Positions 4,249-63,261 of a stretch of 64,000 nucleotides of DNA are shown here, piece after piece. Made by a program: the position numbers and the translations under genes. A model generated the notes under the pieces. The model saw nothing but the letters and a program-made list of their open reading frames with translations, did not search any database and was not told the DNA's origin. Origin of the DNA: Candidatus Falkowbacteria bacterium (GTDB lineage Bacteria > Patescibacteriota > Patescibacteriia > XYB2-FULL-38-15); NCBI GenBank assembly GCA_016214745.1, contig JACRNW010000012.1:4368-68367 (forward strand), read 5' to 3'. How positions within the stretch are numbered: the stretch's first letter is position 1; each line of letters starts with the position of its first letter.

Positions 4249-4330
4249 TCCCCCTCTACCCTTGGGGGAGAGGGTTGGCCCGCCTGCCACGCTAGCGCTG
4301 GCGTTGCGGGCAGGGGTGAGGGGTATGCGG
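4249..4330. repeat. GC-rich hairpin repeat, copy R-a. It is the reverse complement of the copy inside the RT gene at 39826..39912.
   Basis: The sequence cccctctacccttgggggagagggttggcccgcctgccacgctagcgctggcgttgcgggcaggggtgagggg is the reverse complement of 39838..39905 with few mismatches. Confidence 0.8.
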
Positions 4331-4332
4331 GG

Positions 4333-4361
4333 TTGACAAAAAGGTAAAAATGTGGTATTAT
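4333..4361 (+). promoter_or_regulatory. Sigma70-like promoter (TTGACA, 17 nt, TATTAT). It belongs to a promoter-leader module that recurs at 37463 and 49596.
   Basis: The sequence is ggTTGACAaaaaggtaaaaatgtggTATTATaaat. It is nearly identical to 49594..49630 and 37462..37498. Confidence 0.55.
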
Positions 4362-4478
4362 AAATGGTAAAATTAAAGGATGGAGTTTAGGCGAAAAAGC
4401 TCTTAAATTAAAGCTTTTTCGGGTAAGCTTCAACTTTTGAAGAGCCGTCTCGGCAGCGCCGAGACAAGGAGGTTGGCA

Positions 4479-5096
4479 ATGAAGGGTTTGATGACGTGCG
4501 CGGCGCTCGGATTCGTGTTCGTGGCTGGCTGCTACGGGAGCTACCAGAACTACGGCGATGGCCGAGGGGAAGACAGCTTCCCGATCGTGACCTGCGAAGT
4601 CACGGTGACGACGAACGCAGACGGCGCGACCATCACGGTCGACGGCGTCGTGGCAGGCGGTACCGTGGAACTCACGGTGGGCTCCCACACTTTCGTGGCC
4701 ACGGCTGCCGGTTACATTCCGGCGAGCGCGGTCGTGGACGTGGACGAGACCTGTGCGCCTGTCGCGCTTCGGCTTCGGCCGAACCTGAACGGCGACTACG
4801 ATCTCGTCTTGCACAACAGCATCTACGACCGGCTCCTGCTGCACCTCGACCAGGACGAGGAAGGGAATCTCGTCGGCTACGACTGGTACGCCGATGACCC
4901 GGGACACAGCTTCCAGGAATTCACCGGCACTGTTTCGTTCGATGGGGAGGCTTATCTCCTTTCGGACGATTCGGTCCGGCTGAATCTCACTGGCCGCTGG
5001 ACTCCGCCGGGAATTGGCGGCATCTCTCGGATCGTTGGTACCTGGATTTCCGCCGCAGGAGGCGACGGAGAGTGGCTCGCCGAGTCGCGGCCGTAG
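4479..5096 (+). CDS. High-GC lipoprotein with a PEGA-like domain.
   Basis: A strong SD (aaggagg) sits 7 nt before the ATG. The lipobox is FVFVAGC. The PEGA-like stretch reads TVTTNADGATITVDGVVAGGTVELTVGSHTFVATAAGY. The ORF is about 63% GC against about 40% in the flanks. Confidence 0.6.
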   Translation: MKGLMTCAALGFVFVAGCYGSYQNYGDGRGEDSFPIVTCEVTVTTNADGATITVDGVVAGGTVELTVGSHTFVATAAGYIPASAVVDVDETCAPVALRLRPNLNGDYDLVLHNSIYDRLLLHLDQDEEGNLVGYDWYADDPGHSFQEFTGTVSFDGEAYLLSDDSVRLNLTGRWTPPGIGGISRIVGTWISAAGGDGEWLAESRP

Positions 5097-5285
5097 CATC
5101 GGCCGCGCTCGAACCGGCATCTGGCAGAAATCGTGAAGAACGATTCTGTCGGGTGCCGGCTTTTTTAATTTTCATTCCGCTGTGGATGAAAATTTTTTTA
5201 TAATCATTTTTTGTGCTATAATTAATTAATTAATTTAACGCTTGTCCTTAAAAGTGCGTCTTTTGAGGAAAGTAAAATTCAATTT

Positions 5286-17721: not shown

Positions 17722-17901
17722 AATCCCGCACTTTTTTTTAAAGTACGGGACAGACAAGATAGTAAGGAAAGAACTGGAGGCAGTGAGCTCGGCTTGGTCC
17801 CGTCATTCGACAGGACGCCGGACACGGGATTGGTTAAAGTGCCACCGCTAAAAGCGGGGTGCCGCCAAGGCGGCAAAAAATTGAGTGTGCACCCGATTTT
17901 T
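17722..17901 (+). ncRNA. Candidate small RNA of about 180 nt, identity unknown (size is compatible with 6S RNA but unverified).
   Basis: The upstream promoter is TTGACA(17687)-17nt-TAAAAT. A 5' hairpin (cccgcacttt/aaagtacggg) is present. The terminal stem cggggtgc...gcacccg is followed by a T-run at 17895..17901. No ORF is present. Both flanking genes are on the minus strand. Confidence 0.35.
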
Positions 17902-18072
17902 ACTATTCCAATCCTTCCCGACCCCCATTTCTTTCCTTGCTATTTTCTTTTAAATTAGCGCTTTTTAAACACTAACAAGTAATCATACCATAAAATTAGA
18001 ATTTTGTCAATAGTCATTGACAAAAACCGCCGAAAGGGCGGTTTTTAGTTTATCTTAGATTTAATTTTTCTG

Positions 18073-20406: not shown

Positions 20407-20509
20407 CTACAAATTACAAATTTTGATACAAATATACAAATTCTTGCTTACACGTTGATCTAATAAAAATATACTTTATCGCTATTTGTAAATGATTTGT
20501 AATTTGTAG
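20407..20509. mobile_element. AT-rich MITE-like element, copy A (TIR CTACAAATTACAAAT...ATTTGTAATTTGTAG).
   Basis: It is about 90% identical to the reverse complement of 41325..41432, including the internal caaatatacaaattcttgct..acgcgtt.atctaa. Confidence 0.65.
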
Positions 20510-23327: not shown

Positions 23328-24629
23328 TCATTTATTAAATAATTTTTTACGGCGGAGGAGCTTGTGATAGCCAATGGCAAAACGGTGGGCTTCATCGCGA
23401 ACTCGGAGCAAAATATCTTTGTGCAATTCAGCGACGCGGACGAGTTCAGGATTATTTTGATCGGCAATCAGCCGGTCTTGTTTGCGGTCAAAACCTTTGG
23501 CAACACCCAGCACCGGAATTTTTATTTTTTTCTCGGAGAGAATCTCGCGAACAGCGTTGATTTGCCCCCAGCCGCCGTCAACCAAAATTATATTTGGTAA
23601 TGGCCAATCAGAAAGATGCTTTAATCGTCGCGTCATTACTTCTTTCATCATCCCGACATCGTTTGGTGTGGTTAAAGTTTTAATTTTAAATTTTCGGTAT
23701 TCATTTTTATTTGGTTTACCATCTTCAAAAACAACCATGCTGCCGGTCGCCGAAGTGCCGCTGATGTTTGAAATGTCATAACCCTCAATTCGACCAAAAA
23801 TGTCAATTGTTCCGCTGGATACGAATAGCGAATCTTTTGCGAATTTGCGAATTCGTAAATTCGAAGTTAATTCGTTATTCGTATCCTTTGTCAAAATAGC
23901 CACATCCTGGATATGCTCCAGAGAAAAAATTTGATTGCGAAGTCGCGCTGCTTTTTCAAAATTTTCTTCGCGGCTCGCAATAGCCATTTCCTTTTTTAAA
24001 TTTTTAATGATTTTTTCTTTTTTTCCTTCAAAAAATAAAATTAAATGGTGGATGAGGCGGCGGTAATCTTTTATTGAAACAAATCCGGCGCAAGGTGCAG
24101 GGCATTGTTTTAAATGATAATGAAGGCACGGTTTTTTAGCCATAACCACGCAATCGCGGAAAGGAAAAATTTTCCGGCGCAGAATATCAAGCGCGGCGCG
24201 AAGCGAGGAGGCACTCGTGTACGGACCGAAAAGTTTGGCGATTTGTTTTTTCTCGCCGGATGTCATCCGAGCCAATTCTAATCCACGCAGTAAAAAAATC
24301 CGAGGAAATTTTTCTTTGCTGATCGCCACGTACAAAAACGATCTATCATCTTTTTCTTTAACATTATATTTTGGTAAATATTTTTTTATCAAATTGGCTT
24401 CCAAAATTAAAGCTTCAATCACGGTAGGAGTTTTTTGGTAATCAATATCTGCAATTTTTGAAACTAATTTTTCAATTCTAATATCGTGCGGTCGGTCAAA
24501 ATAGCTTTTTACCCGATCGCGGAGCGAAGTGGCTTTTCCGACATAAATAATTTTACCCACGGCATTTTTCATTAAATACATGCCCGGGGTTTTAGGAAAT
24601 TTTTTTATTTTATTTTTTAATTCCGGCAT
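23328..24629 (-). CDS. uvrC: Excinuclease ABC subunit C, short form. The start is reassigned to the internal Met.
   Basis: A GIY-YIG motif (GMYLMKNAVGKIIYVGKATSLRDRVKSYF), a UvrBC-interaction region, and a C-terminal RNase H-like endonuclease region are present. The longer ORF start at 24779 would read through the high-GC insert. Confidence 0.85.
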   Translation of the reverse strand: MPELKNKIKKFPKTPGMYLMKNAVGKIIYVGKATSLRDRVKSYFDRPHDIRIEKLVSKIADIDYQKTPTVIEALILEANLIKKYLPKYNVKEKDDRSFLYVAISKEKFPRIFLLRGLELARMTSGEKKQIAKLFGPYTSASSLRAALDILRRKIFPFRDCVVMAKKPCLHYHLKQCPAPCAGFVSIKDYRRLIHHLILFFEGKKEKIIKNLKKEMAIASREENFEKAARLRNQIFSLEHIQDVAILTKDTNNELTSNLRIRKFAKDSLFVSSGTIDIFGRIEGYDISNISGTSATGSMVVFEDGKPNKNEYRKFKIKTLTTPNDVGMMKEVMTRRLKHLSDWPLPNIILVDGGWGQINAVREILSEKKIKIPVLGVAKGFDRKQDRLIADQNNPELVRVAELHKDILLRVRDEAHRFAIGYHKLLRRKKLFNK

Positions 24630-27900: not shown

Positions 27901-30018
27901 GGGATGTGCTTCGGCATGTTTCGGGGATTTTTTTAATTCCCGAATTTCATCGCGCAAAATGGCGGCCAGCTCGAATTGTAAATTTTTCGCCGCCTCTTTC
28001 ATTTGCCTTTCTTTTTCGTTTATAATTTCTTCAATATTTTTTCCTTTTTCGCCGATAACATCCAGATCCAAAATATTTTTAACTTTTTCTTTTTTATCTT
28101 CTTCGCCGACAATATCTTTGATTTTCTTTTGAATAGTTTTTGGTGTGATGCCGTGTTTTTTGTTATAGTCCATTTGCGTTTTTCGCCGACGTTCGGTTTC
28201 GCGGATGGCGCGTTCCATTGAGCCAGTCATTTGATCGGCATAAAGTAAAACTTGCCCGTGGACATTTCTCGCCGCTCGGCCAATCGTCTGGATAAGCGAA
28301 GTTTCACTGCGCAAAAATCCTTCTTTGTCCGCGTCTAAAATGGCGACTAGGGTCACTTCCGGCAGATCCAATCCTTCGCGCAATAAATTAACGCCGACCA
28401 GAATATCAAATTTCCCCCGGCGAAATTCAGTCAGAATTTTTATCCGGTCCAATGTTTGAACCTCACTGTGGATGTAGTTAACTTTAAATTTTTTTTCCGC
28501 GAGATATTCGCTTAAATCCTCGGCCATTTTTTTAGTCAGAGTCGTGACAAGGACCCGTTCGTTTCGTTTTACGCGGTCGGCAATTCGTTCCATTAAATCA
28601 TCAACTTGAGATTTTTCACCGGAATTTTTTGGTGTGATCGGGCGAACAATAATTTCCGGATCAATCAAACCAGTCGGTCTGATAATTTGTTCAACAACTT
28701 GTCCGCTTCGAGTTAATTCATAATCCGCCGGCGTGGCCGAAGTATAAATTGTCTGCGGCATTCGCGTTTCAAATTCGCTGAATTTCAGCGGCCGATTATC
28801 GGCGGCGGAAGGCAGACGAAAACCAAAATCAATCAACGCTCTTTTTCGCGAAGCATCACCGTCATACATTCCGGAAATTTGCGGCACGGTGACATGTGAT
28901 TCATCAATTACCATTAGCCAATCGGATAGGTTGTGGTTATTTTTGCCGGGGGATACGAATTGCGAATCTTTTACGAATTTACGAATTTGCAAATTCGCAG
29001 TTAATTCGTTATTCGTATCCTTTTGTGATGAGCGCGGGAAATAATCTAAAAGTGTCTCCGGCGGTTCGCCCGCGGCGCGGCCAGAAAGATGGCGAGAATA
29101 ATTTTCAATCCCATGGCAGTAGCCGACTTCTTTTATCATTTCTAAATCATAATTGGTCCGGCGCTCCAATCGCTCGGCTTCAAGCAGTTTTCCATTTTTA
29201 TTAAAATAATCCAAGCGGTCTTTTAATTCTTCTTTGATTGTTTTGAACGCTCGCTCGCGTTCCGGGCCCAGCGTGACAAAATGTTTGGCCGGAAAAATCC
29301 AAACGTCGGATGGTTCATCTTTTATTTTTCTTGTTACTGGGTCAATCGCAAAAATATTTTTTATTTTCTGGTTGGCGGACTCTACTCGGTAAATAATTTC
29401 TTGGTTCACGGGCATTATTTCCAAAGTCTCCCCACGCAAACGAAATTCGCCGCGTTTTAAATCGGAGTTAGTCCGGTTAAATTGCATGGTGATTAACTGG
29501 TTCAATAAATCAGCGCGGGTGATAGTTTGATCTTTAGCCAAATGCAAAACAATTTTTTCATAGGTTTCCGGGGCGCCCAAACCATAAATACAAGAAACCG
29601 AAGCGACGATGATTACATCGCGCCGCGTCAAAAGCGCCTGAGTCGCGGCGTGGCGGAGGCGATCAATTTCGTCATTGATCATGGCTTCTTTTTCAATGTA
29701 AGTATCGGTTCGCGGCAAATATGCTTCAGGTTGGTAGTAATCGTAATAGGAAACAAAATATTCCACGGCATTATCCGGGAAAAATTCTCGAAACTCATTG
29801 CAAAGCTGCGCCGCCAGGGTTTTATTGTGGGCGATGACAAGAGTGGGTTTATTGATTTTTGCGATCACATTTGCCACAGTAAAAGTTTTGCCTGAACCGG
29901 TGACGCCGAGAAGCGTTTGATGACCGTAATTTTTTTTCAAACCACTAACAAGTTCGGCGATTGCTTTTGGCTGATCGCCCGATGGTTTAAATTTAGATTT
30001 TAATTTGAATTTGTTCAT
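27880..30018 (-). CDS. uvrB: Excinuclease ABC subunit B. The start is reassigned to MNKFKLKSKF.
   Basis: The sequence reads GDQPKAIAELVSGLKKNYGHQTLLGVTGSGKTF, with helicase motifs, a DESH box, and a C-terminal UVR domain (ELAAILRDEIRELK). Confidence 0.95.
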   Translation of the reverse strand: MNKFKLKSKFKPSGDQPKAIAELVSGLKKNYGHQTLLGVTGSGKTFTVANVIAKINKPTLVIAHNKTLAAQLCNEFREFFPDNAVEYFVSYYDYYQPEAYLPRTDTYIEKEAMINDEIDRLRHAATQALLTRRDVIIVASVSCIYGLGAPETYEKIVLHLAKDQTITRADLLNQLITMQFNRTNSDLKRGEFRLRGETLEIMPVNQEIIYRVESANQKIKNIFAIDPVTRKIKDEPSDVWIFPAKHFVTLGPERERAFKTIKEELKDRLDYFNKNGKLLEAERLERRTNYDLEMIKEVGYCHGIENYSRHLSGRAAGEPPETLLDYFPRSSQKDTNNELTANLQIRKFVKDSQFVSPGKNNHNLSDWLMVIDESHVTVPQISGMYDGDASRKRALIDFGFRLPSAADNRPLKFSEFETRMPQTIYTSATPADYELTRSGQVVEQIIRPTGLIDPEIIVRPITPKNSGEKSQVDDLMERIADRVKRNERVLVTTLTKKMAEDLSEYLAEKKFKVNYIHSEVQTLDRIKILTEFRRGKFDILVGVNLLREGLDLPEVTLVAILDADKEGFLRSETSLIQTIGRAARNVHGQVLLYADQMTGSMERAIRETERRRKTQMDYNKKHGITPKTIQKKIKDIVGEEDKKEKVKNILDLDVIGEKGKNIEEIINEKERQMKEAAKNLQFELAAILRDEIRELKKSPKHAEAHPGDPMKE

Positions 30019-30214: not shown

Positions 30215-31021
30215 TTGATCGTGAGCGAAGGAAACGCAGGGAGCAGTGTTGGGGGTTGTTCGGACGACAACCAGGTGGGCGACGACACGCTGACTGGCAA
30301 CAAAACTGGTCGGTACGAACTGCCGCTGGACGATCCGGATTTTCTTGGCGAGCTGTTTAGGACGGCAGAGGAAGAGGGCTTGGCCAAGACCTTCCAGGCT
30401 GGCGAGTGGATCTTCCATGCCGGCGAAGAGCCGGAGGAGTACTGGCTCATCGGCAAGGGTCGGGTAGCCCAGTACCGTGGAGGCAGCGATACGGGCAGTT
30501 GCATCAATGAGCTTGGCCCGCGGAGATTCCTCGGGGTGAGAGCGTTCCACCTCGGGATGCCGCATACTACCTCGGCTCAGGCCATTGAACCCAGCACTCT
30601 GATCAGGATCGGGGGATCCCTCTACGGCAAGTTGCTCAAAGTTCCGCGGTTCGTCTACCTCGTTATCCAGCAGCAGGAGAAGGAAATCTGCGAGGTGAGC
30701 GACGCGGTTCTGCGGAGTCGCGTTGACCTTGAAGCGCTGCAGCGCGAGGTCGCCACTCTCCGGAGGGATATTGAGCGATATGAAAAGATGTCGCCAGAGC
30801 AGCTGGCTCAGAGGAACGTTAGGGCCGGGGTGGCGGAACGGACTCTGCATCTTCTGGCGCCGGATCTTGTGGGGCTCGACAAGGACGTGGCAGAGCTTCT
30901 TGCCACGCTTCCGCCAGAAGTTCTGAAGGCGGTACGCAACAATCTCGTTTTTGGCAGGATTTTCGCCGCCATTACGAGATGTCGGAACCAGGTTCGGCCG
31001 CTCGAGTTTACCCGCAAGTAG
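30215..31021 (+). CDS. High-GC cyclic-nucleotide-binding domain protein with a C-terminal coiled coil.
   Basis: The cNMP-binding fold signature is FQAGEWIFHAGEEPEEYWLIGKGRVAQYR...GPRRFLGVRAF. An SD (aagggagga) is present. The ORF is about 62% GC. Confidence 0.55.
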   Translation: MIVSEGNAGSSVGGCSDDNQVGDDTLTGNKTGRYELPLDDPDFLGELFRTAEEEGLAKTFQAGEWIFHAGEEPEEYWLIGKGRVAQYRGGSDTGSCINELGPRRFLGVRAFHLGMPHTTSAQAIEPSTLIRIGGSLYGKLLKVPRFVYLVIQQQEKEICEVSDAVLRSRVDLEALQREVATLRRDIERYEKMSPEQLAQRNVRAGVAERTLHLLAPDLVGLDKDVAELLATLPPEVLKAVRNNLVFGRIFAAITRCRNQVRPLEFTRK

Positions 31022-36228: not shown

Positions 36229-36322
36229 TAATAAGTTAAAAGTTTAAAGTGAAAAGTTAAAAGTTTTTGAGTAAATTATTTTTTAATATAACAAACAATT
36301 TTCAGATTGTCAATCGTGAATT

Positions 36323-36499
36323 TCTCCCCTTAAGATAAGGGGAGATTAAGAGGGGTTATGAGCGGTGGATTTTAGTGGCCGGTTCATAACGCCCCCGCCC
36401 GCCACGCAAGCCAGCCCCGCCTGCAACGCTATGCTTGCATTAGCGGGCAGGTTGCTGGCGTTGCGGGCAGGCCCAGCCCCTCTTACCTTAAGAGGGGAG
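36323..36499. repeat. Structured GC-rich direct repeat, copy 1, flanking the xer gene (related to the R-a/R-b core).
   Basis: It is nearly identical to 37648..37827. The end hairpins are tctcccctta-ag-taaggggaga and cccctctta-cc-ttaagagggg. The core is gctggcgttgcgggcagg. Confidence 0.8.
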
Positions 36500-36502
36500 T
36501 TA

Positions 36503-37420
36503 TCATTTCCCGCGTCGGCGGCCGTGAAAACTTTTGTGCACGTCGCGAAGTTGTTGATTTGTGATATGCGTATAAATTTGCGTAGTAGTAATGGAAGAAT
36601 GGCCGAGCATGGCCTGGACCGAACGGATGTCGGCGCCGTTCATCAATAAATCCGTGGCGTAAGAATGGCGCATGGTGTGCGGCGTAACTTTTTTGGTGAT
36701 GCCGGCGATTTTAGAATATTTTTTTACGAGCCGTTCCACGCTCCGGGGAGTGAGAGCCGCTTCACTCTCATGCGCCCGGTCGTGGGAAACGAACAAAAAC
36801 GGTGAAACGTCTTGGCGCGCCTCCAGATATTGTTTGACCCAAAACTTGGCCTGGTTTGATAAAAAGACTATGCGCGGTTTGTCGCCCTTGCCGCGGACTG
36901 TAAATTCCTCTTTTTTTAAATTGACTTGTTCTTTTTTTAAATTTGCCAGCTCAGAAACGCGGAGTCCGGTGGAAAAAAGCATTTCCACAATCGCCTTGTC
37001 TCGTTTTTTTATAATTTCCGGCGTCTCGGCGAGCGTTGGCGCTTCAAGTAGCCGCTCCAAATCGCTTCCTTCTAAAAAATCCACCACGCGTTCGGGCATT
37101 TTGCCCAATTCAATTTTTTCCGCAGACAAAGTTTTGATGTCGCGCTTGGCCAGATATTTCAAAAAAGCTCGTAGGGCGATCAGATGATAATTTTGCGTAT
37201 TCTTTTTTAATTCTCTTCCTGTTTCGTCGGCAAAACGATTAAGCCAAAGGCGATACTGCCTAACCTTTTCTTGGGTAATGCCGGAAGGGGAGGAATTGCC
37301 TGCCCACTCGTTAAACCTTTTTAAATAAAAATCATAATTCCGTATGGTCTTGGAGGAACGGTTTTTTTCTATTTCCAAATATTCCAGAAATTGAGTGATC
37401 AAAGTGTTGAGGTTGGCCAT
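36503..37420 (-). CDS. xerC: Tyrosine site-specific recombinase, XerC/XerD-like.
   Basis: The N-terminal SAM-like domain reads FLEYLEIEKNRSSKTIRNYDFYLKRF. The catalytic C-terminus reads HTMRHSYATDLLMNGADIRSVQAMLGHSSITTTQIYTH. Confidence 0.85.
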   Translation of the reverse strand: MANLNTLITQFLEYLEIEKNRSSKTIRNYDFYLKRFNEWAGNSSPSGITQEKVRQYRLWLNRFADETGRELKKNTQNYHLIALRAFLKYLAKRDIKTLSAEKIELGKMPERVVDFLEGSDLERLLEAPTLAETPEIIKKRDKAIVEMLFSTGLRVSELANLKKEQVNLKKEEFTVRGKGDKPRIVFLSNQAKFWVKQYLEARQDVSPFLFVSHDRAHESEAALTPRSVERLVKKYSKIAGITKKVTPHTMRHSYATDLLMNGADIRSVQAMLGHSSITTTQIYTHITNQQLRDVHKSFHGRRRGK

Positions 37421-37462
37421 AGAGGATTTTTAGTGTCGCACAATTATATTTTACTACACATT

Positions 37463-37520
37463 TTTACTATTGACAAAATCCTCAAAATGTGGTATATTTA
37501 ATTGTTAGTAAATAGTTCTT
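37463..37520 (+). promoter_or_regulatory. Conserved promoter-leader module (TTGACAaaatcctcaaaatgtggTATATTtaattgttagtaaa), paralogous to 4333 and 49596.
   Basis: Aligned by eye to 49594..49650 (ttgacaaaatggttaaaatgtgttattctaaattgttagtaaa) and to 4333..4375. Confidence 0.55.
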
Positions 37521-37532
37521 TTAAAGGTAAAA

Positions 37533-37610
37533 CCCCCTCACTCCAACTCTCTCCCCGAAGGGGAGAGAGAGTCTCCTCGCCCCATTGGGGAGAGGATTAA
37601 GGTGAGGGGG
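37533..37610. repeat. GC-rich hairpin repeat, copy R-e (double hairpin).
   Basis: The sequence ccccctcac...ctctccccgaaggggagagagagtctcctcgccccattggggagagg...gtgaggggg has flanking inverted repeats. Confidence 0.75.
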
Positions 37611-37647
37611 CAACAAGTTCACAGTTTTCTTTTGGCGGCGCTCTGGT

Positions 37648-37827
37648 TTCTCCCCTTAAGGTAAGGGGAGATTAAGAGGGGTTATGAAAGGTGGATTTTT
37701 AAAATCACAATTCATAACGCCCCCGCCCGCCACGCAAGCCAGCCCCGCCTGCAACGCTATGCTTGCATTAGCGGGCAGGTTGCTGGCGTTGCGGGCAGGC
37801 CCAGCCCCTCTTATCTTAAGAGGGGAG
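37648..37827. repeat. Structured GC-rich direct repeat, copy 2 (partner of 36323..36499).
   Basis: About 97% identical over about 175 bp. Confidence 0.8.
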
Positions 37828-37923
37828 GAGCGAGCACAATCAAAAGAAGGCTGGGAAACCGGCGCTTCCTCTTTGCCACATCGGCGAGGAGAAAGCTTTC
37901 GCGTAAGGCGGAGGCAAAAGGAA

Positions 37924-38391
37924 ATGAAGATGGATACCCTGCGTTCCGCGTCCCACCTGCAGCGCGAGATCGGCGACGAGCTGTTCGCGGCTCTCGTGAA
38001 CTCGGACAACACCGCGGCGGTGCGGAAGTTCGCCGCGACGCTCGTCAAGTCCGCCCTCCCGACCGAGATGACGGTCGGCGGGGTCACCTACGAGATCCTC
38101 TCGTTCCTCAAGGGGGACGAGAAGAGCGTGGTCGGCCACACCATGGTCGAGCGGGCGAAGGAGATGGGCGCCAACCTCGGGGAGGAGGATTGCGAGCGCT
38201 TCCTGAAGAACCAGTCCGACATCCCCGCCGCGCTCTGCGGCAAGGTCGCCTTCGTCTTCCCGGACTTGCGGCACCCGGACGACCGCGAGTACGTCGCGGA
38301 CCTCGACTGGGGCGGCGACGGCTGGTACCTGCTCTGGGGCTGGCTCTCGCGCGACTGGCGCGGCCGCGGTCGTCTCCTTCGCCGCAAGTAA
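37924..38391 (+). CDS. DGR target protein (156 aa, high GC) with a C-terminal variable region.
   Basis: RBS aaaggaa. The last roughly 45 codons (38262..38387) align to the TR at 38735..38870. Differences fall mostly at TR adenines (AAC->GGC/CGC/GAC/CTC; GAC->GGC). The 3' 15 nt are identical (cgtctccttcgccgc). Confidence 0.75.
   Translation: MKMDTLRSASHLQREIGDELFAALVNSDNTAAVRKFAATLVKSALPTEMTVGGVTYEILSFLKGDEKSVVGHTMVERAKEMGANLGEEDCERFLKNQSDIPAALCGKVAFVFPDLRHPDDREYVADLDWGGDGWYLLWGWLSRDWRGRGRLLRRK
38262..38387 (+). repeat. DGR variable repeat (VR).
   Basis: It is homologous to the TR. All TR AAC codons are substituted in the VR. An IMH-like GC-rich 3' end is present. Confidence 0.75.
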
Positions 38392-38456
38392 TGTTTTGTA
38401 ACTCGGCCCTTCAAAAAGGCCGTGTCGCTCGGACCCTTGGACACTCGGTTCCTCGG

Positions 38457-38500
38457 GCCCTCACACATTTCGTTGTGTGAGGGCCTATTTTTTTAAACTA
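38457..38500 (+). terminator. Perfect 12-bp hairpin downstream of the VR, followed by a T-run (terminator and/or DGR homing-associated stem-loop).
   Basis: The hairpin is ggccctcacaca-tttcgt-tgtgtgagggcc, followed by ctattttttt. Confidence 0.6.
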
Positions 38501-38734
38501 AATTTTGATATACTTCAAAATAGATTTTACGGTTACGGCGTCGGCTATTGCTTATGCGCGTAGAATCTCGCCATTTCATTTTTCAGAATGCGATCGGTTA
38601 AGGCTTATCGCAGAGCAAGAATGAAGTGACTAAAATGAAGATACTTGGTGCGGCTTGTTAGGGAGACATAGCTTCTCCGAATACGATTCAACCCCGAGAG
38701 TATTCAAAGGGTGGTGGCACGGACGACAGGCCGC

Positions 38735-38870
38735 ATAATTCTGCGCAACCCGAACGGCAACCTCTACGTCGCCTACCTCAACTGGAACGACGACCGCTGG
38801 ATCGTGAACTTCAACTGGCTCGACAACGACTGGAACGACAACGATCGTCTCCTTCGCCGCCAGTCTCTTC
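38735..38870 (+). ncRNA. DGR template repeat (TR), a noncoding template rich in AAC codons.
   Basis: It contains seven in-frame AAC triplets where the VR has G/C-containing codons. The ORF called at 38711..39172 is the TR read in frame and overlaps avd on the other strand. Confidence 0.75.
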
Positions 38871-38900
38871 ATCAACGCTCCCGTCCCTTTGGGCGGGAGT

Positions 38901-39209
38901 TTATTTTCGGAAGGATTGTAAATTTTTTATCCAACCACCAAGCATTATACCGGCGGACGAAAGTTTTTGGGAGAGCCGCGCGTATTTTCCGGTATCTATT
39001 CCTTTTGCTTCCCAGAGAATTGCCACAAAAAATTTCAGATTGTCTAATTTACGATTTAATTGCAGCAAAAAGTTTAATTTATCTTCGCGTCTTGTATATT
39101 GCGCGGTTAAGGCCAATTCCAAAATATTTACGAATAATTCGTCTATTTTTTTGCCGAGCGTGTAGCGTGTGAGGCGGGGCAGATGCGTTAAAAAACTATG
39201 CCACAACAA
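38901..39209 (-). CDS. avd: DGR accessory variability determinant (Avd, four-helix-bundle protein).
   Basis: It is 102 aa. The C-terminal LGGWIKNL resembles the Bordetella Avd LGSWIARV. Four-helix-bundle / 23S-IVS family features are present. It lies between the TR and the RT but is transcribed divergently from the RT. Confidence 0.65.
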   Translation of the reverse strand: MLWHSFLTHLPRLTRYTLGKKIDELFVNILELALTAQYTRREDKLNFLLQLNRKLDNLKFFVAILWEAKGIDTGKYARLSQKLSSAGIMLGGWIKNLQSFRK

Positions 39210-39234
39210 ATAAGTTTCTTTGAAAGTGGAGATA

Positions 39235-40362
39235 ATGGGAATCTCGGTAAAATTCCGTTGGGGGGGGGGATTTAAAGGGCGGATCGTTCCGAAAATTCAA
39301 TTGGCTCATAAATTTGAAGATATTATTTCTTTAGAAAATTTATTTTTGGCCTGGCAGGAATTTTTAGTTGGCAAAAAGGGTAAGCGCGACGTCCAGATTT
39401 TTGCTCGCGACTTGGCTGATAATATTTTAGCGCTCCACGAAGATTTAGCAAATAAAACTTATCGCCACGGCGGATATGAAAGTTTTTACGTCAACGATCC
39501 GAAACGCCGACATATTCATAAAGCGGCGGCGCGCGACCGTTTACTCCATCACGCCGTTTACAGAATTCTTTATCAGTTTTTTGAAAAAACATTTATTGCC
39601 GACTCCTTTTCCTGTCGCTTAGGGAAAGGAACACACAAGGCCATTAATCGTTTCCGGGCCATGGCTTTTCGGGTAAGCCAAAATCACACGCGGACGGTTT
39701 GGGTTTTGAAATGCGACATTAAAAAGTTTTTCGCGAGCATTGACCACGAGGTTTTACTTAAAATTTTGAAAGAATATATTCCGGATGAAAATATTTTGTG
39801 GCTGCTGAAAAATGTGATAGAAAGTTTTGCCACTCTCCCCCTCACCCCTGCCCGCAACGCCAGCGCTAGCGTGGCAGGCGGGCCAACCCTCTCCCCGAAG
39901 GGGCGAGGGGACGAAAACGGTGTTGGTCTGCCGCTTGGCAATTTGACCTCGCAACTTTTCGCCAATGTTTATATGAATGTTTTTGATCAGTGGGTTAAAC
40001 ATAAACTGAAAGCCAAAAATTATTTACGCTATGCCGACGACTTTGTTTTTCTTTCCGAAAATCGTGAGTGGCTTTTGAATATCGTGCCGCAGATTAAAAA
40101 GTTTTTGGCGGAAGAATTAAAACTGACGCTTCATCCAAAGAAAATTATTTTGAAAACCGTCGTTTCGGGCGTTGATTTTTTGGGTTGGGTGTGCTTCTCG
40201 GACCATCGCGTCCTGCGGCAGACGGCGCGGCGGCGGATGTTAGCGCGTATTTTGGAAAATCCCACACAAGAAACTCTGCAATCATATTTAGGTCTTCTGA
40301 AACACGGCAATACTCTTGGAGTACGGTGGCAGACTCTTATAAATTATTGGTTGTGGGGGTGA
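39235..40362 (+). CDS. DGR reverse transcriptase.
   Basis: Motifs present: ENLFLAWQEFLVGKKGKR; GLPLGNLTSQLFANVYMN (DGR-type motif 4); LRYADDFVFL (YADD). There is no maturase/X domain and no intron structure. A G10 tract sits at 39260..39269 near the N-terminus. An in-frame GC-hairpin repeat insert lies at 39826..39912. Confidence 0.85.
   Translation: MGISVKFRWGGGFKGRIVPKIQLAHKFEDIISLENLFLAWQEFLVGKKGKRDVQIFARDLADNILALHEDLANKTYRHGGYESFYVNDPKRRHIHKAAARDRLLHHAVYRILYQFFEKTFIADSFSCRLGKGTHKAINRFRAMAFRVSQNHTRTVWVLKCDIKKFFASIDHEVLLKILKEYIPDENILWLLKNVIESFATLPLTPARNASASVAGGPTLSPKGRGDENGVGLPLGNLTSQLFANVYMNVFDQWVKHKLKAKNYLRYADDFVFLSENREWLLNIVPQIKKFLAEELKLTLHPKKIILKTVVSGVDFLGWVCFSDHRVLRQTARRRMLARILENPTQETLQSYLGLLKHGNTLGVRWQTLINYWLWG
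39826..39912. repeat. GC-rich hairpin repeat, copy R-b, inserted in-frame within the RT gene.
   Basis: It is the reverse complement of 4249..4330. It translates as ATLPLTPARNASASVAGGPTLSPKGRGDENG without stops. Confidence 0.8.
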
Positions 40363-40468
40363 TGGAATTTTTTATCAATCCTTGCCAAATAAAAAAGGTT
40401 GTGTTAATATGATTAAGTAAATTATTAATGACGGTTCGCTGGGCTACGGAGGGTAGACTCGGCAACCC

Positions 40469-41324: not shown

Positions 41325-41432
41325 CTACAAATTACAAATCATTTACAAATATACAAATAATAACGGAACGTGTTTTGTTAGATTAACGCGTCAGCAAGAA
41401 TTTGTATATTTGTATTAAATTCGTAATTTGTA
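41325..41432. mobile_element. AT-rich MITE-like element, copy B (inverted relative to copy A at 20407).
   Basis: Shares the same TIRs and internal sequence with copy A. Confidence 0.65.
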
Positions 41433-41515
41433 GTAATTTAATTTTTGATCGCCAGACAAGTAGGCTTCTTCTGGGTCACCAGAAGTCTAAAGTTTGGCGG
41501 TCAAAGCAAAAAATT

Positions 41516-49545: not shown

Positions 49546-49593
49546 TGTAATCATACCAGAAAGGGGGTGGCGTGTCAATCTCGGCGACAAGCC

Positions 49594-49650
49594 GGGTTGA
49601 CAAAATGGTTAAAATGTGTTATTCTAAATTGTTAGTAAAATTGGTCTTTT
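49594..49650 (+). promoter_or_regulatory. Conserved promoter-leader module (ggTTGACAaaatggttaaaatgtgtTATTCTaaattgttagtaaa).
   Basis: Paralogous to 4333 and 37463. Confidence 0.55.
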
Positions 49651-49810
49651 AAACTTATTCTTAGCCTTATTTTGGCGGTTTTATGACCATCAAAACAAGG
49701 CTGGGAGTGGTTTCCCGGCTGTTCTTGCCTTCCGGCGAATCGGACAAGGTGTCTGGCAATGGTGCCGAGTGCTTTGTTTGACTACCGGCGGGTGAGGGAG
49801 GAAAGAGACG

Positions 49811-50479
49811 ATGGCAAGGGCGACGATTAGTCAGGTGCACGAACTGGGGGAGCAGATCAGGCGCGGGCAGATTCCGGCGTGGAAGGTGAGGATCGTTTTC
49901 GGGCTTTCCGAAAAGGAAACGGAAACGCCGTTCCACATGTTCCTCAGCCTGGTAAAGGCCGCCAAGGCCGAGATCGTCTCGGCCGAGCAGATGCAGATGA
50001 TCCTCGAGGGAAGGTGCGAATCCTTCGGGATTTTCAAGGTGACGGTGGATTACGGTCTCACTCTCTCCGAGATGATCGCCGCTGGCCGTTATGACGTCGT
50101 AGACAGCTACATCACTACCGAGTATTTCCCTGTGACCGGCAAGGGGAGGGTAGAGCGCGAGGTCGTCGCGGTTTACCTGAATCGTGAAGTAAAGGACGGT
50201 GATGTCATCGCCGAGCTCGCCCTTCGCGGTTTCCGGCCCGCCAAGATCGAGGATCTTCTTGCTTTGAGCGCACTGCATCCCGATTTTCGGGAAGGATTTC
50301 CGACGACGGTGCTTGGTCCTAAGGGAGATCTGAGCGGTGATCGCGGCTGTTTCTACACGTGTCACGGTCTGACTGAGGGCATGTGGGTCTTGGCTCACGG
50401 CTGGTTCAATCTCCGCCTGTGCGTTCCCTGCTGGGGGAAGTCCTGTCGGTTTCTGGCCGTCCGCAAGGACGCTGCGTAG
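49811..50479 (+). CDS. High-GC hypothetical protein (222 aa).
   Basis: SD gagggagga. About 60% GC. C-terminal Cys/Trp-rich. No motif was recognised. Confidence 0.45.
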   Translation: MARATISQVHELGEQIRRGQIPAWKVRIVFGLSEKETETPFHMFLSLVKAAKAEIVSAEQMQMILEGRCESFGIFKVTVDYGLTLSEMIAAGRYDVVDSYITTEYFPVTGKGRVEREVVAVYLNREVKDGDVIAELALRGFRPAKIEDLLALSALHPDFREGFPTTVLGPKGDLSGDRGCFYTCHGLTEGMWVLAHGWFNLRLCVPCWGKSCRFLAVRKDAA

Positions 50480-50698
50480 TTCGAACCTCATCCTGACACT
50501 TTCGGCGTAAGCCGAGAGAGTCGGGTGGAACGGACCTGCTGACTCCTACCTTTGGTGTAACAACCGGGGTAGGAGTCTTTTTTATTTCGCGAAAACGCAA
50601 AAGAAACAAAGACGCAAAAACCCCAACTGCAAGTTTTGAATTTTGGTCATTGGGATTTATTTGGAATTTGATGTTTTGGATTTTGGATTTTTGATATC

Positions 50699-52902: not shown

Positions 52903-53156
52903 TTTGACAAAATTTTAAGGTTTAGTTAAAATGATTTTTGTATGACAGTTAAGAGAATTTTTATTTTGATTAGCATTATTACTGGCCATAGGCGGTCTAG
53001 GCGTTTTTAATAGTTATAAATTAAAAATGAACTGGCCGCCAAACGCGGTCAGTTTTATTTTTAGGATATTGTCTCTCTAAAATAGTCGCGAAAATTTTGC
53101 CGCTGTTTTGGGGAGGGAAATGGATGGGCGCGGGAGGCGCCGGGAGGAGAAACGAG

Positions 53157-53756
53157 ATGGACGACAAAAGGCTGCGGGAAGTGAAGATCTGTCCGGTGCA
53201 CGGGGAGGCGATGGAGGAGAGGCCGGATGGTCTCTATTGTCAGCACTGTGATCGGCTGGGACGACACGGCCATGTGGTTGTTGCGGCTTGTCTCAATTGC
53301 GGCTCAGTCCTGCTCGACATCGGCCATTTCATGAGCTGCTACCCCTCGATCGTACTCGGCTGGCGCTGCACCGAGGAGCGACTCCGGGATGGCCGGGAAC
53401 ACGTGCTTCACGTTTCGGCCGTCTGGGGAGATCACGCGGTCCATCCGGATGCGGACATCGTACCGGGGAGTGTTCTCAACCTTTTCTGTCCTCGCTGCAA
53501 GGCGGAGTTCCCGAGGGTTTCCTATTGCAACGAGTGTCGCGCCAAGGTGGTGCGGATCGGGGCGCGGCACATGTACGACGGGAGGGACGGTTTCATCGAA
53601 GTTTGTGCCAGGTGGGGCTGCCCGCAACATCGCAAGGTGAGTCCGGACGAGTCTGCGGCTGTGGCCGGTCCCCAGGTCATGTGCGGCGGGGGACGCCACA
53701 TGGACATCGCTGCGATGAGAGCCGACGTGGTTCTGCGCAACGGCGCCGGAAGGTAG
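53157..53756 (+). CDS. High-GC Cys-rich (multiple CxxC) putative zinc-ribbon protein.
   Basis: SD gggaggag 6 nt before the ATG. Cys pairs: CPVHG..CQHCD, CLNCG, CPRCK..CNECR, CARWGC. About 64% GC. Confidence 0.45.
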   Translation: MDDKRLREVKICPVHGEAMEERPDGLYCQHCDRLGRHGHVVVAACLNCGSVLLDIGHFMSCYPSIVLGWRCTEERLRDGREHVLHVSAVWGDHAVHPDADIVPGSVLNLFCPRCKAEFPRVSYCNECRAKVVRIGARHMYDGRDGFIEVCARWGCPQHRKVSPDESAAVAGPQVMCGGGRHMDIAAMRADVVLRNGAGR

Positions 53757-56925: not shown

Positions 56926-57003
56926 GGCCCTATCGTCTAGTCTGGTCTAGGACACCACGCTTTCAATGTGGTAACCCGGGTTCGAATCCCGGTGGGGCTA
57001 CCA
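56926..57003 (+). tRNA. tRNA-Glu (anticodon TTC).
   Basis: Cloverleaf: GGCCCTA-TC-GTCTAGTCTGGTCTAGGAC-A-CCACGCTTTCAATGTGG-TAAC-CCGGGTTCGAATCCCGG-TGGGGCT-A-CCA. The 3' end is overlapped by IR1-L and by the recombinase ORF tail. Confidence 0.75.
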
Positions 57004-58525
57004 GAAAAAAACTTTTCGGATTTTCGGTAAAAATTTGGTTGACGGCGCACAGCGCCGCCCACGGGTTTTTCGGCGAATTGTCGCCGTTTTTTATTTCCCC
57101 CCACACCACTTGTCCGCCCGTAAGGCGGAGGTTCGAGCCAAATATTTTTTTGGCCATAACCTTTTTGTCTAAAAGGTTATGCTCCCGCGCGATTTTAGGC
57201 AGATTCTCTGCCTCTTTTATCCATTCCTTCATCGGTTCGATCCAGCCAGTCCGCTTTTGTTTCAGGTGGACAATTTTTTCTTCCAGCGACTTTTTCTCAC
57301 TTATAAATTTAGCCTTCTTTTCTAAGTATACCTCTCGCTCAATATCCTGCTCCAAGTAACTATCTAAAAGTCGCTGTAGCTTCATTTTTAGGGACTCTAT
57401 GGTATTTTTGATCTCTTGAACAAAAGCGGCCGAGGATTGGGCATCTTGGTTTTTGTCTTTTTCGAGCAAGGCGGTTAATTGCGTTGCCCAATCCTCGCTC
57501 AAAGAAAATTTTTCAAGCAAAAGGGATGTCTGCTCATCTAAACACTCCTGGCGAATACAGGGCTCGTCACATTTTATTGCCTTGTTCTTTTTGGTGCAGT
57601 GATAATAAATATAATCATGAGTATTACCATTCTTTTGTTTTTTCACCCTGTATTCGCCAGTTATGCCCATACCACAAGTGCCACATCTTAACATGCCGCA
57701 AAATGCTTGCGGTTCATTTTTTGTTTTGTGGTGCGGTCTGCTTTTTTGCTTCAAAATATTCTGTACTTGGTCAAAAATTTTCTTTGAGATGACTGGCTGA
57801 TGTTTGCCCTCATAAAGTTCTTTACCGTACCTAAAAAATCCAACATAAAACGGATTGGAAAGGATAAAAGAAACTCTGTCTCGTTTCCAGTGTTTACCAT
57901 TACGCGATGTTATTCCTTGTTGCGCCAAAAAGTTAGAGATATCCTCTAGTCGTGAATTGCCTTGCGCGTATAGTTCAAAAGTTTTTCGCAAGATTTCCGC
58001 TTGCTTTTTATCCACAGCCACATTTTTAGTGCGGGGGTCGTTGAAATACCAAAACGGCGCAAGGCCGGGATACTCTCCGCGCCTAACTTTTTGGCGCATA
58101 CCTCGCTTTACATTTTCGGATAATGAATCAACATAATATTTGCTTTGCCCAAAAGCAATATTTAGCATAAATTTCCCTTGTGGCGTGCTTTCAAACCAAA
58201 ACTGCGGAAATTTTAAGGCCGTAATATGCCCGCAATCTAAAAGATAAATTATCTTTCCACCATCCACAGAATTGCGCGCTAATCGGTCGGGATGCCACGA
58301 AATTATGCCATTTGCTTCCCCGCGCTCTATTCTTTCTAACATGGTATTAAAAACCGGTCTGCCTGGAATTTTAGCCGATTGTTTTTCTATTAACTCCTCA
58401 ACAATAATCAGACCTTCATTTCTGGCAAAGGCGCGCAATTCTGTGGTCTGGGCTTCAATACTCAAAACTTGCTTATCTTCCACATCCGTGGATTTGCGGG
58501 CATACAAAAAGAATTTTTGTTCCAT
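56963..58525 (-). CDS. Large serine recombinase (resolvase/invertase N-domain + recombinase domain + zinc ribbon). Its C-terminal roughly 45 aa are encoded by IR1-L.
   Basis: Catalytic N-terminus LYARKSTDVEDKQVLSIEAQ ... GIISWHPDRLARN. Zinc ribbon CGMLRCGTCGMGITGEY..YYHCTKK. A C-terminal coiled coil is present. The start is reassigned to MEQKFFLYARKST. Confidence 0.85.
   Translation of the reverse strand: MEQKFFLYARKSTDVEDKQVLSIEAQTTELRAFARNEGLIIVEELIEKQSAKIPGRPVFNTMLERIERGEANGIISWHPDRLARNSVDGGKIIYLLDCGHITALKFPQFWFESTPQGKFMLNIAFGQSKYYVDSLSENVKRGMRQKVRRGEYPGLAPFWYFNDPRTKNVAVDKKQAEILRKTFELYAQGNSRLEDISNFLAQQGITSRNGKHWKRDRVSFILSNPFYVGFFRYGKELYEGKHQPVISKKIFDQVQNILKQKSRPHHKTKNEPQAFCGMLRCGTCGMGITGEYRVKKQKNGNTHDYIYYHCTKKNKAIKCDEPCIRQECLDEQTSLLLEKFSLSEDWATQLTALLEKDKNQDAQSSAAFVQEIKNTIESLKMKLQRLLDSYLEQDIEREVYLEKKAKFISEKKSLEEKIVHLKQKRTGWIEPMKEWIKEAENLPKIAREHNLLDKKVMAKKIFGSNLRLTGGQVVWGEIKNGDNSPKNPWAALCAVNQIFTENPKSFFLVAPPGFEPGLPH
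56999..57135. repeat. Inverted repeat IR1-L (137 bp), a perfect inverted copy of 58737..58873. It starts in the tRNA-Glu 3' end.
   Basis: The reverse complement of 58737..58873 matches base-for-base as read. It contains the hairpin ccgcc-cgtaa-ggcgg. Confidence 0.85.
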
Positions 58526-58736
58526 ATATTTTTTATTAAAATTTAAATAGCCGCCCTGGTGCAGCCAACCCAAGAGAAAGTCTCAAGGATTGATTCCAAG
58601 ACGGCTATTAAAAAAGACTTTCTTGATTTGGTTGGCTGCGTATTAAGTATACCACAAATATAAAAAACAACAAAACAAAAATTCTTTTTGTCGGGCAAAG
58701 CAAATAACGAGACAGAATTTCAAATCGCGCGGGTGG

Positions 58737-58873
58737 CGAACCTCCGCCTTACGGGCGGACAAGTGGTGTGGGGGGAAATAAAAAACGGCGACAATTCGCC
58801 GAAAAACCCGTGGGCGGCGCTGTGCGCCGTCAACCAAATTTTTACCGAAAATCCGAAAAGTTTTTTTCTGGTA
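58737..58873. repeat. Inverted repeat IR1-R.
   Basis: Partner of 56999..57135. It generates the spurious ORF 58688..58918. Confidence 0.85.
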
Positions 58874-58887
58874 TCACTTTACAACGA

Positions 58888-59009
58888 AATACGAACCTTT
58901 TTTGAACAAAATTATTAGGGGTTTATGGTGTAGGGGCTGGCCGCCCCTACAACCCCGCAAATTCGTGCGGGCAAAAAGGAAGGGGTTTTAGGGGAGGGAA
59001 TTTTTGCCC
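58888..59009. repeat. Inverted repeat IR2-L (122 bp), a perfect inverted copy of 63129..63251, composed of three hairpins.
   Basis: gaaatacgaaccttttttgaacaaaattattaggggtttatggtgtaggggctggccgcccctacaaccccgcaaattcgtgcgggcaaaaaggaaggggttttaggggagggaatttttgccc equals the reverse complement of 63129..63251. Confidence 0.85.
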
Positions 59010-62933: not shown

Positions 62934-63128
62934 AAATATTAAAATATTAAAATGATGCTAAATCACTACTCATAATTTATCATAAATCGAGTTCTAAAGC
63001 AATGAGGAGCAATACTTGCGCGCGCACGGGCGGGTGGGGCAAGCGCAAATAGTTTCGGCGGCGCATTCGCGTAAGCGAATACGAAAACTCGCGCCGTCGG
63101 CGAAAAAGCGGCGGGCGAAAATAAGGGC

Positions 63129-63251: not shown

Positions 63252-63261
63252 TATGCAGAAC

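Follow-up and report, generated by a model that had tools for sequence, protein, structure and literature searches.

Do near-identical promoters in front of three different genes mark a module that moves about a genome, or are they regulatory regions that the genes have long carried with them? The question is raised by 64 kb of a Candidatus Falkowbacteria contig, here called the window (overall GC 0.44), in which three small GC-rich genes, islets 1 to 3, are each preceded by an extended -10 promoter of closely similar sequence. Bacteria of the candidate phyla radiation (CPR, or Patescibacteria) are uncultured and mostly host-attached, and to our knowledge almost nothing is known of their transcription signals or of how their surface proteins are regulated. 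The window itself has the gene content of an ordinary CPR chromosome (rpsO, PNPase, FtsK, H+-PPase, an M23/LysM peptidase and tRNAs), and the islet proteins are 100% identical to proteins of one Candidatus Falkowbacteria metagenome-assembled genome, where they lie on an 85.9-kb contig (HZB93_03635, HZB93_03580 and PEGA protein P0104). We conclude that the feature probably reflects reuse of a promoter and leader among the members of a fast-evolving gene-cassette family, rather than a promoter element that moves on its own. The likeness would have two layers: convergence on, or retention of, a consensus in all three copies, and shared promoter-leader ancestry of copies 2 and 3, with a further pair of type-1 copies in a related locus, L137. 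Loci and contigs from related genomes used for comparison carry L-numbers (L121-L139); two relatives, L126 and L127, were compared over 20 kb each, and a metagenome scan using protein alignment returned 7 loci. The three promoters are:

4333..4361 (+): promoter copy 1; TTGACA, 17-nt spacer, TATTAT, TGn extended -10; 11/12 consensus
37470..37498 (+): promoter copy 2; TTGACA, 17-nt spacer, TATATT, TGn; 11/12 consensus
49597..49625 (+): promoter copy 3; TTGACA, 17-nt spacer, TATTCT, TGn; 10/12 consensus

All three sites have the hexamers, the 17-nt spacer and the TG one base before the -10 of a sigma-70 extended -10 sequence, and we infer that they are near-consensus housekeeping (sigma-70/sigma-A class) promoters. 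The pattern TTGACAAAA-N5-AAAATGTGnTAT (written TTGACAAAANNNNNAAAATGTGNTAT) has exact matches at three places on the + strand of the window, 4333, 37470 and 49597, and no others, where 0.02 matches are expected. The original prediction of three promoter copies at these places is thus borne out; a gg that it had put ahead of TTGACA in the copy at 37463-37469 is not present. When the 12 TTGAC[AT]-N17-TAnnnT sites of the window are compared pairwise, the three highest spacer identities are those between the three copies (0.76-0.82, vs a mean of 0.39 with a standard deviation of 0.15), and 37470 and 49597 are the top pair over the 20 nt 3' of the -10. Since spacer and leader are more alike than at the other window sites, more than two hexamers is common to the copies, and the outcome that the prediction had named as telling against it, likeness confined to TTGACA and TATAAT, was not what we found. 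The further claim that the -35, spacer, -10 and about 20 nt of leader are shared holds for 37470 and 49597 and fails for the 4333 leader beyond about +15, where its likeness to the others ends: this copy lacks TTGTTAGT and reads TAAATGGTAAAATTA in place of TAAATTGTTAGTAAA. Its identity to 37470 is 70% over 43 nt, below the 50 nt and 80% that define putative mobile promoters. High GC downstream of all three promoters was correctly foreseen, with coding-sequence GC of 0.63, 0.68 and 0.58 for islets 1, 2 and 3 vs 0.44 in the window. GC at third codon positions (GC3) is 0.79, 0.96 and 0.71, vs 0.45-0.49 in housekeeping genes.

How particular is this core to the three genes? A scan of one genome per bacterial species found the 26-nt core (20 specified bases) at at least 120 loci, where about 17 would be expected were the whole collection 35% GC (a rough estimate). 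The matches listed come from Eubacteriales, Oscillospiraceae, Clostridia (Firmicutes), many Patescibacteria (about 17 of them Magasanikbacteria) and other groups, and the sequence 3' of the core is unrelated between the matches listed. This excess and the unrelated downstream sequence argue that the core is a recurrent optimum consisting of the -35 TTGACAAA, an A-rich spacer and a TRTG extended -10. A Saccharibacteria site differs from copy 3 at 2 of the 26 positions, and the islet-2 homolog of a Parcubacteria locus, L139, combines the promoter type with a leader that is short and unrelated. The spacer bases that coincide in the window vary among the orthologs of each gene (AAAACGTG, AAAGCGTG, AAATACGC, AAATATGG, AAATTATG). 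The near-identity had been taken to exclude independent promoters; with a generic core, and with a copy at 4333 whose likeness stops at about +15, that does not stand for all three. For copy 4333, convergence on the consensus would explain the likeness as well as old common descent.

In related genomes each copy stays with its own gene, and two of the three do so at the orthologous position: copy 1 is kept at the orthologous loci L137 and L138, and copy 3 in six orthologous loci. This conservation argues that the three promoter regions are old, inherited regulatory regions. They share with extended -10 sigma-70/sigma-A promoters at large the TTGACA, a 17-nt A/T-rich spacer and a TG before a TATAAT-like hexamer, a core common in Firmicutes and Patescibacteria. 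Unlike such promoters, copies 2 and 3 remain alike for about 35 nt into the transcript and again further downstream, and as the alignments stand the general promoter consensus does not account for this likeness. The parts of the two leaders are:

37505..37526 (+): leader 5' block GTTAGTAAATAGTTCTTTTAAA, also in copy 3 (sequence comparison, self-BLAST)
37533..37610 (unstranded): palindromic GC-rich insertion in the copy-2 leader, resembling a repetitive extragenic palindrome (REP) or miniature inverted-repeat transposable element (MITE); self-inverted, 76% identity; repeat family D7
37625..37638 (+): 5' half of predicted hairpin P1, TTTTCTTTTGGCGG; parallels GCCTTATTTTGGCGG of copy 3, and L136
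37647..37827 (unstranded): 181-nt MITE-like element in the P1 loop; second copy at 36321-36499, 92.8% identity
37836..37923 (+): copy-2 3' leader core; ACAATCAAAAGAAGGCTGGGA, the 3' half of P1; a GAAA hairpin; CTTCCTCTTTGCC, resembling an anti-ribosome-binding site (anti-RBS); GGCAAAAGGAA before the ATG
49632..49810 (+): type-3 structured 5' leader of copy 3; P1 hairpin, then P2 long-range stem (RNAalifold); no Rfam match

Self-BLAST of the window aligns 49597-49653 with 37470-37525 over 57 nt at 82.5% identity with one gap, and a 43-nt pattern running into the leader is found at 37470 with 2 mismatches and at 49597 with 0, where none is expected in the window. Past the -10 the two copies agree at 22 of 25 leader positions and have GTTAGTAAA(A)T.G.TCTTTTAAA in common, followed further downstream by TT(T/A)T(C/T)TTTTGGCGG and AC(A/C)ATCAAAA(G/C)AAGGCTGGGA. 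The second leader block of both reads TTTTCTTTTGGCGG ... ACAATCAAAAGAAGGCTGGGA, with ATCAAAAnAAGGCTGGGA as well. AAGGCTGGGA, 60-330 nt further on, has 2 matches in the window, both in these leaders (0.15 expected), and the later two leader blocks form the two strands of P1. A promoter hidden Markov model (HMM) of 11 family members scores those members at 37.7-53.5 bits over about 55 nt and the generic promoters (120 loci) at no more than 30 bits, a gap that favours the members, which are also the training set. It recognises three copies in the 64-kb window and one in each of the 20-kb stretches of L126 and L127. Judged by these alignments, common ancestry links copies 37470 and 49597 over the promoter, the opening ~35 nt of the transcript and each half of P1.

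The loop of P1 tolerates MITE insertions. L136 carries the same 181-nt element in the same loop (L136:4766-4868 vs 37626-37728, 88.6% identity; element at L136:4766-4912), and other inserts occupy the loop in L126, L127, L131, L133 and L134. Past P1, an HMM of the copy-2 leader core (t2core) matches only homologs of the islet-2 gene, and a search for a structure common to the type-2 and type-3 cores failed at the alignment. In 5 of 8 minimum free energy (MFE) folds the U-rich block (tcttttaaa; GUCUUUU) is paired to the purines immediately before the AUG, and by inspection the two sides appear to change together (GUCUUUU/AAGAGAC in the window vs UUCUUUU/AAGAGAA in L126). Rfam 15 at gathering score returned only tRNAs over the window, which includes the islet-2 leader at 37505-37923, and permissive scans of 49560-49860 and 4300-4520 gave only chance-level miRNA and snoRNA matches. 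Palindromes of the form CCCCTCACC...GGGGAGAGG, related to a 73-nt MITE/REP-like element, lie scattered between genes (31093, 37533, 50701).

We next turn to the genes that the promoters serve. Copy 2 would be the first functional element of a complete diversity-generating retroelement (DGR) cassette, consisting of a gene with a variable repeat (VR), a template repeat (TR), avd and a reverse transcriptase (RT), inserted between a xerC-like gene and rpsO:

37454..40379 (+): 2.9-kb DGR island, missing from the syntenic L127 site (xerC-like gene / rpsO)
37924..38391 (+): islet 2 coding sequence, DGR variable protein, 155 aa; GC 0.68, GC3 0.96; VR at 38267-38389
38455..38495 (+): 13-bp GC-rich hairpin and T-run 3' of the VR; a terminator that also fits the hairpin expected downstream of a DGR VR
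38742..38864 (+): TR, AAC-rich; 123 nt, 70% identity to the VR
38901..39209 (-): avd, bAvd-like accessory protein; Pfam PF22296, 42.3 bits vs a cutoff of 40
39220..40362 (+): DGR RT; Pfam RVT_1; LGNLTSQLFANVY (I/LGxxxSQ motif) and YADD

Comparison with L127 delimits the island, as L127:1-866 aligns to window 36588-37453 and L127:873 onward to window 40380 onward. From the left edge of the island to the -35 of copy 2 is 16 nt, from the RT stop codon to the right edge 17 nt, and no target duplication is seen at the junctions in this comparison. The VR makes up the last ~40 codons of the islet-2 gene. The AlphaFold model of its protein is confident (predicted local distance difference test, 94), and nearly all of its top PDB matches are C-type lectin domains, matched weakly (E 0.08-1, probability up to 0.92, template modelling score 0.43-0.53). 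TR and VR are identical over the 3' 15 nt, CGTCTCCTTCGCCGC, and differ at 37 positions: 22 at a TR adenine, 8 at C, 3 at G and 4 at T, with A making up about 24% of the TR. In our reading of the consensus, the positions that vary across 40 target homologs are largely the AAC/GAC codons of the TR. The best PDB match of the RT is the Bordetella phage bRT (8ub7, E 1.8e-37); an in-frame MITE (39838-39910) lies within it, with about 30 extra residues between RT motifs (query residues 186-231).

DGRs of CPR bacteria have been surveyed (PMC8144416, PMC11661182), and with the Bordetella phage BPP-1 type the island shares the RT motif and YADD, a closest structure in bRT, an Avd homolog, a C-terminal TR/VR pair in a small protein, weak C-type-lectin-like fold matches, an identical 3' end like that of an initiation of mutagenic homing site, and a GC hairpin after the VR. 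It differs in having avd on the opposite strand, 15 non-adenine TR/VR differences and an RT with an in-frame MITE. In the literature that we searched, no conserved promoter-leader ahead of CPR DGR target genes is described. Homologs of the islet-2 gene also stand alone, with no TR or RT nearby: in L133 between NiFe-hydrogenase subunit genes, in L134 between a P-type ATPase gene and bacA, and in L136 adjoining gyrB. Each of these has the same promoter and leader, homology to the window starts at the -35, and the copy-2 promoter is 91% identical over 57 nt to that of the L133 gene. The DGR island and these dispersed homologs suggest that the promoter-leader also travels with its gene to new sites.

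We considered an integron or integrase-borne element as the vehicle and rejected it: the tyrosine recombinase gene at 36503-37420 is conserved in L127, where the island is missing. The apparent 181-nt direct repeats around the recombinase gene were likewise set aside as MITE-like copies that are also found in the L136 leader loop. As they lie, the 181-nt repeats at 36321-36499 and 37647-37827 flank the xerC-like gene.

Copy 3 is predicted to drive an orphan, syntenically conserved gene, gene X, that ends in a VR-like tail:

49811..50479 (+): islet 3 coding sequence (gene X), 222 aa; conserved N-terminal ~165 residues, hypervariable ~40, RFLAVRKDAA tail
50542..50585 (+): terminator-like hairpin ACTCCTACC...GGTAGGAGT and T-run; read by eye, loop >8 nt, not called by the scan

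Gene X keeps its place between the M23/LysM and H+-PPase genes in L121 and L124. Its leader of ~180 nt (MFE -71.4 kcal/mol, z -4.4) and its promoter are kept together in the six orthologous loci. There the 3' ~120 nt of the leader are about 95% identical, although the ortholog proteins share only 39-55% of their residues. The hypervariable stretch covers about 50330-50449, the RFLAVRKDAA end is invariant in the family, and the A fraction of the gene is 0.11 in the VR-like part vs 0.21 in the rest. Two contigs from one metagenome, L129 and L130, are about 99-100% identical in promoter, leader and 3' flank and about 45% identical in the VR. Along ~500 nt of the coding sequence the two diverge steadily more as the VR is approached, a breadth that exceeds that of a typical DGR VR. 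A conserved 23-mer at the 3' end of gene X has a single occurrence in the window, and each relative locus likewise has one.

Two ideas about this gene were discarded. The TR in the window was rejected as its template, and an upstream open reading frame in the type-3 leader fails because three orthologs lack its ATG and its frame is broken by 1-nt indels. Back to back with copy 3, and 19 nt from it, stands a divergent promoter for the M23/LysM gene at 49550-49578 (-), with TTGACA, 17 nt, TATGAT and TG. The block ACCAGAAAGGGG..GTCAAT near copy 3 is conserved in all orthologous loci.

The cassette of copy 1 encodes a lipoprotein:

4251..4323 (unstranded): GC-rich MITE/REP-like element directly 5' of promoter 1; 73 nt, 96% identity to 39838-39910, inverted
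4368..4478 (+): type-1 5' leader; one long hairpin; hairpin GTCTCGGCAGCGCCGAGAC just before the Shine-Dalgarno, then AAGGAGG
4479..5096 (+): islet 1 coding sequence, PEGA-domain lipoprotein; Pfam PEGA; GC 0.63, GC3 0.79
5108..5170 (+): long-hairpin intrinsic terminator

RNAalifold of 4 sequences predicts 33 pairs in this leader, 7 of them with compensatory changes. The PEGA gene is syntenic in L137 and L138, where the orthologs retain promoter 1 and leader. L137 holds a second promoter-leader copy as well (L137:3710-3859, 83% identity to window 4333-4452, ~120 nt), at the head of an M10-like lipoprotein gene unrelated to PEGA (BLASTP E 0.3-0.4), and three unrelated GC-rich genes of L137 are followed by the same terminator as that at 5108-5170. 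The original description of the downstream genes as unrelated does not fit islets 2 and 3 in kind, since both appear to encode DGR-type variable proteins.

What kind of history do these units imply? Putative mobile promoters have been defined as stretches of 50-100 nt with >=80% identity, within 150 nt upstream of non-homologous genes (Matus-Garcia, Nijveen and van Passel 2012, PMC3488235). The 57 nt at 82.5% in the window and the ~120 nt at 83% that precede the PEGA and M10-like genes of L137 resemble these, and the L137 pair lies within the distance. The window pair, unlike them, lies outside 150 nt, at 214 nt (49597-49811) and 454 nt (37470-37924) from the gene starts; the downstream genes encode the same kind of protein, and the copies appear old and inherited with their genes. 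A MITE or insertion-sequence-derived outward promoter differs further in its terminal repeats and target duplication, neither of which is found here, and three copies are all there are in 64 kb. The original prediction had spoken of a mobile or templated module. Reuse of the promoter-leader is what remains of this; the marks of an autonomous element and any sign of templating are missing.

Could the three promoters instead be independent, each driven to the lineage-optimal consensus (-35 TTGACAAA, A-rich spacer, TRTG, TATTAT)? Such pure convergence fits the recurrence of the core in at least 120 loci of unrelated genomes, down to the Saccharibacteria site that nearly equals copy 3, and it fits ortholog spacers that vary exactly where the window copies coincide, the L139 promoter type without the leader and the end of the 4333 likeness at about +15. 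We consider it unlikely as an account of the whole, since 22 of 25 leader positions and the second block AAGGCTGGGA are shared by copies 2 and 3 and the HMM separates family members, which trained it, from generic promoters. The opposite proposal, that a short MITE-like element with an outward promoter transposes in front of genes, acquired GC-rich ones included, could draw on the doubled promoter-leader of L137 with one copy before an unrelated gene, on homology to L133 that begins right at the -35, on an island that starts 16 nt upstream of that -35, and on GC-rich MITEs that are clearly active in this genome (one in the RT reading frame, one abutting promoter 1). Self-BLAST of the window on both strands, however, finds no terminal inverted repeats, target-site duplication or inverted copies of the module, and copies are few in the window and in both relatives. 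Moreover, every copy checked elsewhere heads a homologous gene, with homology that runs into the untranslated region and the gene, and the MITE adjoining promoter 1 excludes the promoter itself. We regard an autonomous mobile promoter as decidedly improbable.

Two further readings concern regulation. The leader may be a dedicated cis-regulatory RNA, a sensor or a protein-binding RNA that controls translation of the DGR protein, which is compatible with promoter-leader reuse and which we hold as a tentative minority view. In its favour are the folding z of -4.4, the near-invariant CCGGCGAAUCGGAC and GCAAUGGUG in predicted loops and internal loops, conserved well above the protein, the possible anti-RBS pairings, the lack of an Rfam family, and the presence of the leader ahead of two different variable-protein families. 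Set against these, covariation is nearly absent from the type-3 leader, its core cannot be aligned with that of type 2, the P1 loop tolerates 70-300 nt of MITE sequence, the leader is gone from a distant homolog, and its high relative conservation may reflect the fast evolution of the coding part. In its most specific form, that of an undescribed, lineage-specific structured RNA coupled to DGR variable-protein genes in CPR of the Falkowbacteria/Magasanikbacteria type, this RNA is a possibility to which we give limited credence. The same doubtful standing goes to the parts that such an RNA might have: a 5' start GUUAGUAAA, a P1 loop that is a MITE hotspot, and a conserved GC-rich core overlapping the ribosome-binding site. 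Alternatively, the spacer and +1 region (AAAATGTG ... TAAATTGTTAGT) might bind one transcription factor and make the three genes a regulon. The identity of spacer and start region is outlying within the window, and GTTAGT, for which about 0.4 occurrences would be expected (a rough estimate), stands 5-12 nt past the -10 in 6 or more of the 120 generic loci. With no obvious dyad symmetry, a spacer that is not conserved among orthologs and no linked regulator gene, we think a shared operator very unlikely.

Promoter-leader reuse in a cassette family thus remains the reading we favour, and several observations weigh against parts of it. The islet-2 and islet-3 proteins have no detectable sequence similarity (BLASTP E 0.57), and their leaders cannot be aligned past AAGGCTGG. 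The U-rich block is missing in L127, L128, L131 and L136, and its pre-AUG pairing appears in only five of the eight folds. One of 51 predicted type-3 leader pairs covaries, in a leader that is extremely conserved. Within the island, 15 of the 37 TR/VR mismatches fall at non-A positions, above the norm for active pairs, and with the MITE in the RT this suggests that the DGR may be decaying or that the TR may not be the current template. Gene X is a putative DGR target by its variability pattern alone: neither the window nor 20 kb of two relatives yielded a cognate TR (expected end ...TTTCTGGCCGTCCGCAAGGACGC), and its structural model is of low confidence in the VR and has no significant fold match. 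Transcript starts, promoter strength and the sigma factor are inferred for all three sites. Finally, cassette reuse does not explain a GC3 that persists at 0.7-0.96 in genomes of 42-44% GC.

GC3 in this range is seen in the small accessory genes at 4479-5096, 30215-31021, 37924-38391, 49811-50479 and 53097-53756, and homologs in L133, L134, L136 and L137, from genomes of 42-44% GC, show the same bias. A-specific depletion was rejected as the cause of the whole-gene high GC: outside the VRs both A and T are low, and adenine mutagenesis is therefore not the source of the GC3 bias.

In the model that we propose, each unit would run from a strong promoter through a long structured 5' leader and a small GC3-rich gene of secreted or surface type to a strong hairpin terminator. 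The cassette family would span Falkowbacteria/Magasanikbacteria-like CPR; its non-coding flanks would be kept, and its coding parts would diverge or give way to others. The housekeeping sigma factor would recognise the promoters, transcription would be high and constitutive, and the leader hairpins may act as 5' mRNA stabilisers, as modulators of ribosome access (GUCUUUU can pair with the purines before the AUG), or both. The promoter-leader could spread through ordinary duplication and through recombination in which the conserved flanks provide the homology arms.

Two well-known systems offer partial parallels. The vsp/vlp variable surface lipoprotein families of Mycoplasma join a conserved 5' expression region to divergent surface-protein coding sequences in a small, host-dependent genome. 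Unlike them, the cassettes show no signal-peptide conservation, invertible promoter or site-specific recombination sites, and their variation would be at least partly retroelement-driven. In E. coli, ompA, the gene for an abundant envelope protein, has a long structured leader with a stabiliser hairpin, preceded by a strong promoter and followed by a strong Shine-Dalgarno; the leaders described here have no sequence relationship to it, and a stabiliser role for them is suggested by analogy.

The window supplies a comparatively validated example of CPR strong-promoter architecture and two candidate structured 5' leaders missing from Rfam. It also indicates that DGR variable-protein genes, near the retroelement or dispersed, may travel as promoter-leader-gene-terminator units with GC3 up to 0.96. 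If the leader were a dedicated regulator, expression control would be linked to targeted hypermutation. In the most specific form given above, the leader would control the timing of the diversified surface protein or mark the cassette for recombination or retrohoming; leader and conserved terminator would then make up expression cassettes that could be carried from place to place, for fast-evolving, GC3-rich surface genes in reduced and otherwise AT-rich genomes. If it is not a regulator, promoter-leader reuse and consensus convergence would still explain the finding, which leaves usable promoter, leader and terminator parts for CPR biology.

The window holds one weaker relative of the three promoters:

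17982..18010 (-): fourth, weaker promoter relative; TTGACAAAAT..TGGTATGAT then TTGTTAGT; below the promoter-HMM threshold

This promoter (18010-17982, TTGACAAAAT..TGGTATGAT then TTGTTAGT) precedes a candidate noncoding RNA of ~250 nt at 17725-17975 (-), upstream of ftsK. The RNA is predicted to fold strongly (MFE -103.6 kcal/mol, z -7.6), ends in an intrinsic terminator and has no Rfam match.

Several other repeats and one further island were observed. Two large open reading frames (ORFs) contain coding repeats, PT/PA-rich units of 21-27 nt at 1302-1514 and ~80-nt units with an NYGGYF motif at 2399-3309 (in an 848-aa ORF, 1562-4108), and neither ORF has a Pfam match. An AT-rich, internally palindromic 88-nt repeat (...GATACGAATAGCGAATC...CGAATTCG...) occurs at 23802-23889 and 28936-29023, 5 kb apart, with 86% identity. 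A self-complementary, imperfect inverted repeat of 110 nt (79% identity) occurs at 41325-41433 and 20407-20509, one copy lying between the NYN-domain and PNPase genes. A 6.25-kb island at 57004-63256, at the 3' end of tRNA-Glu and not in the relative L127, has genes for a large serine recombinase (56963-58573, -) and for a GNAT-domain protein of 1328 aa, and it carries two pairs of 100%-identical inverted repeats (56999-57135 / 58737-58873; 58887-59009 / 63129-63251).

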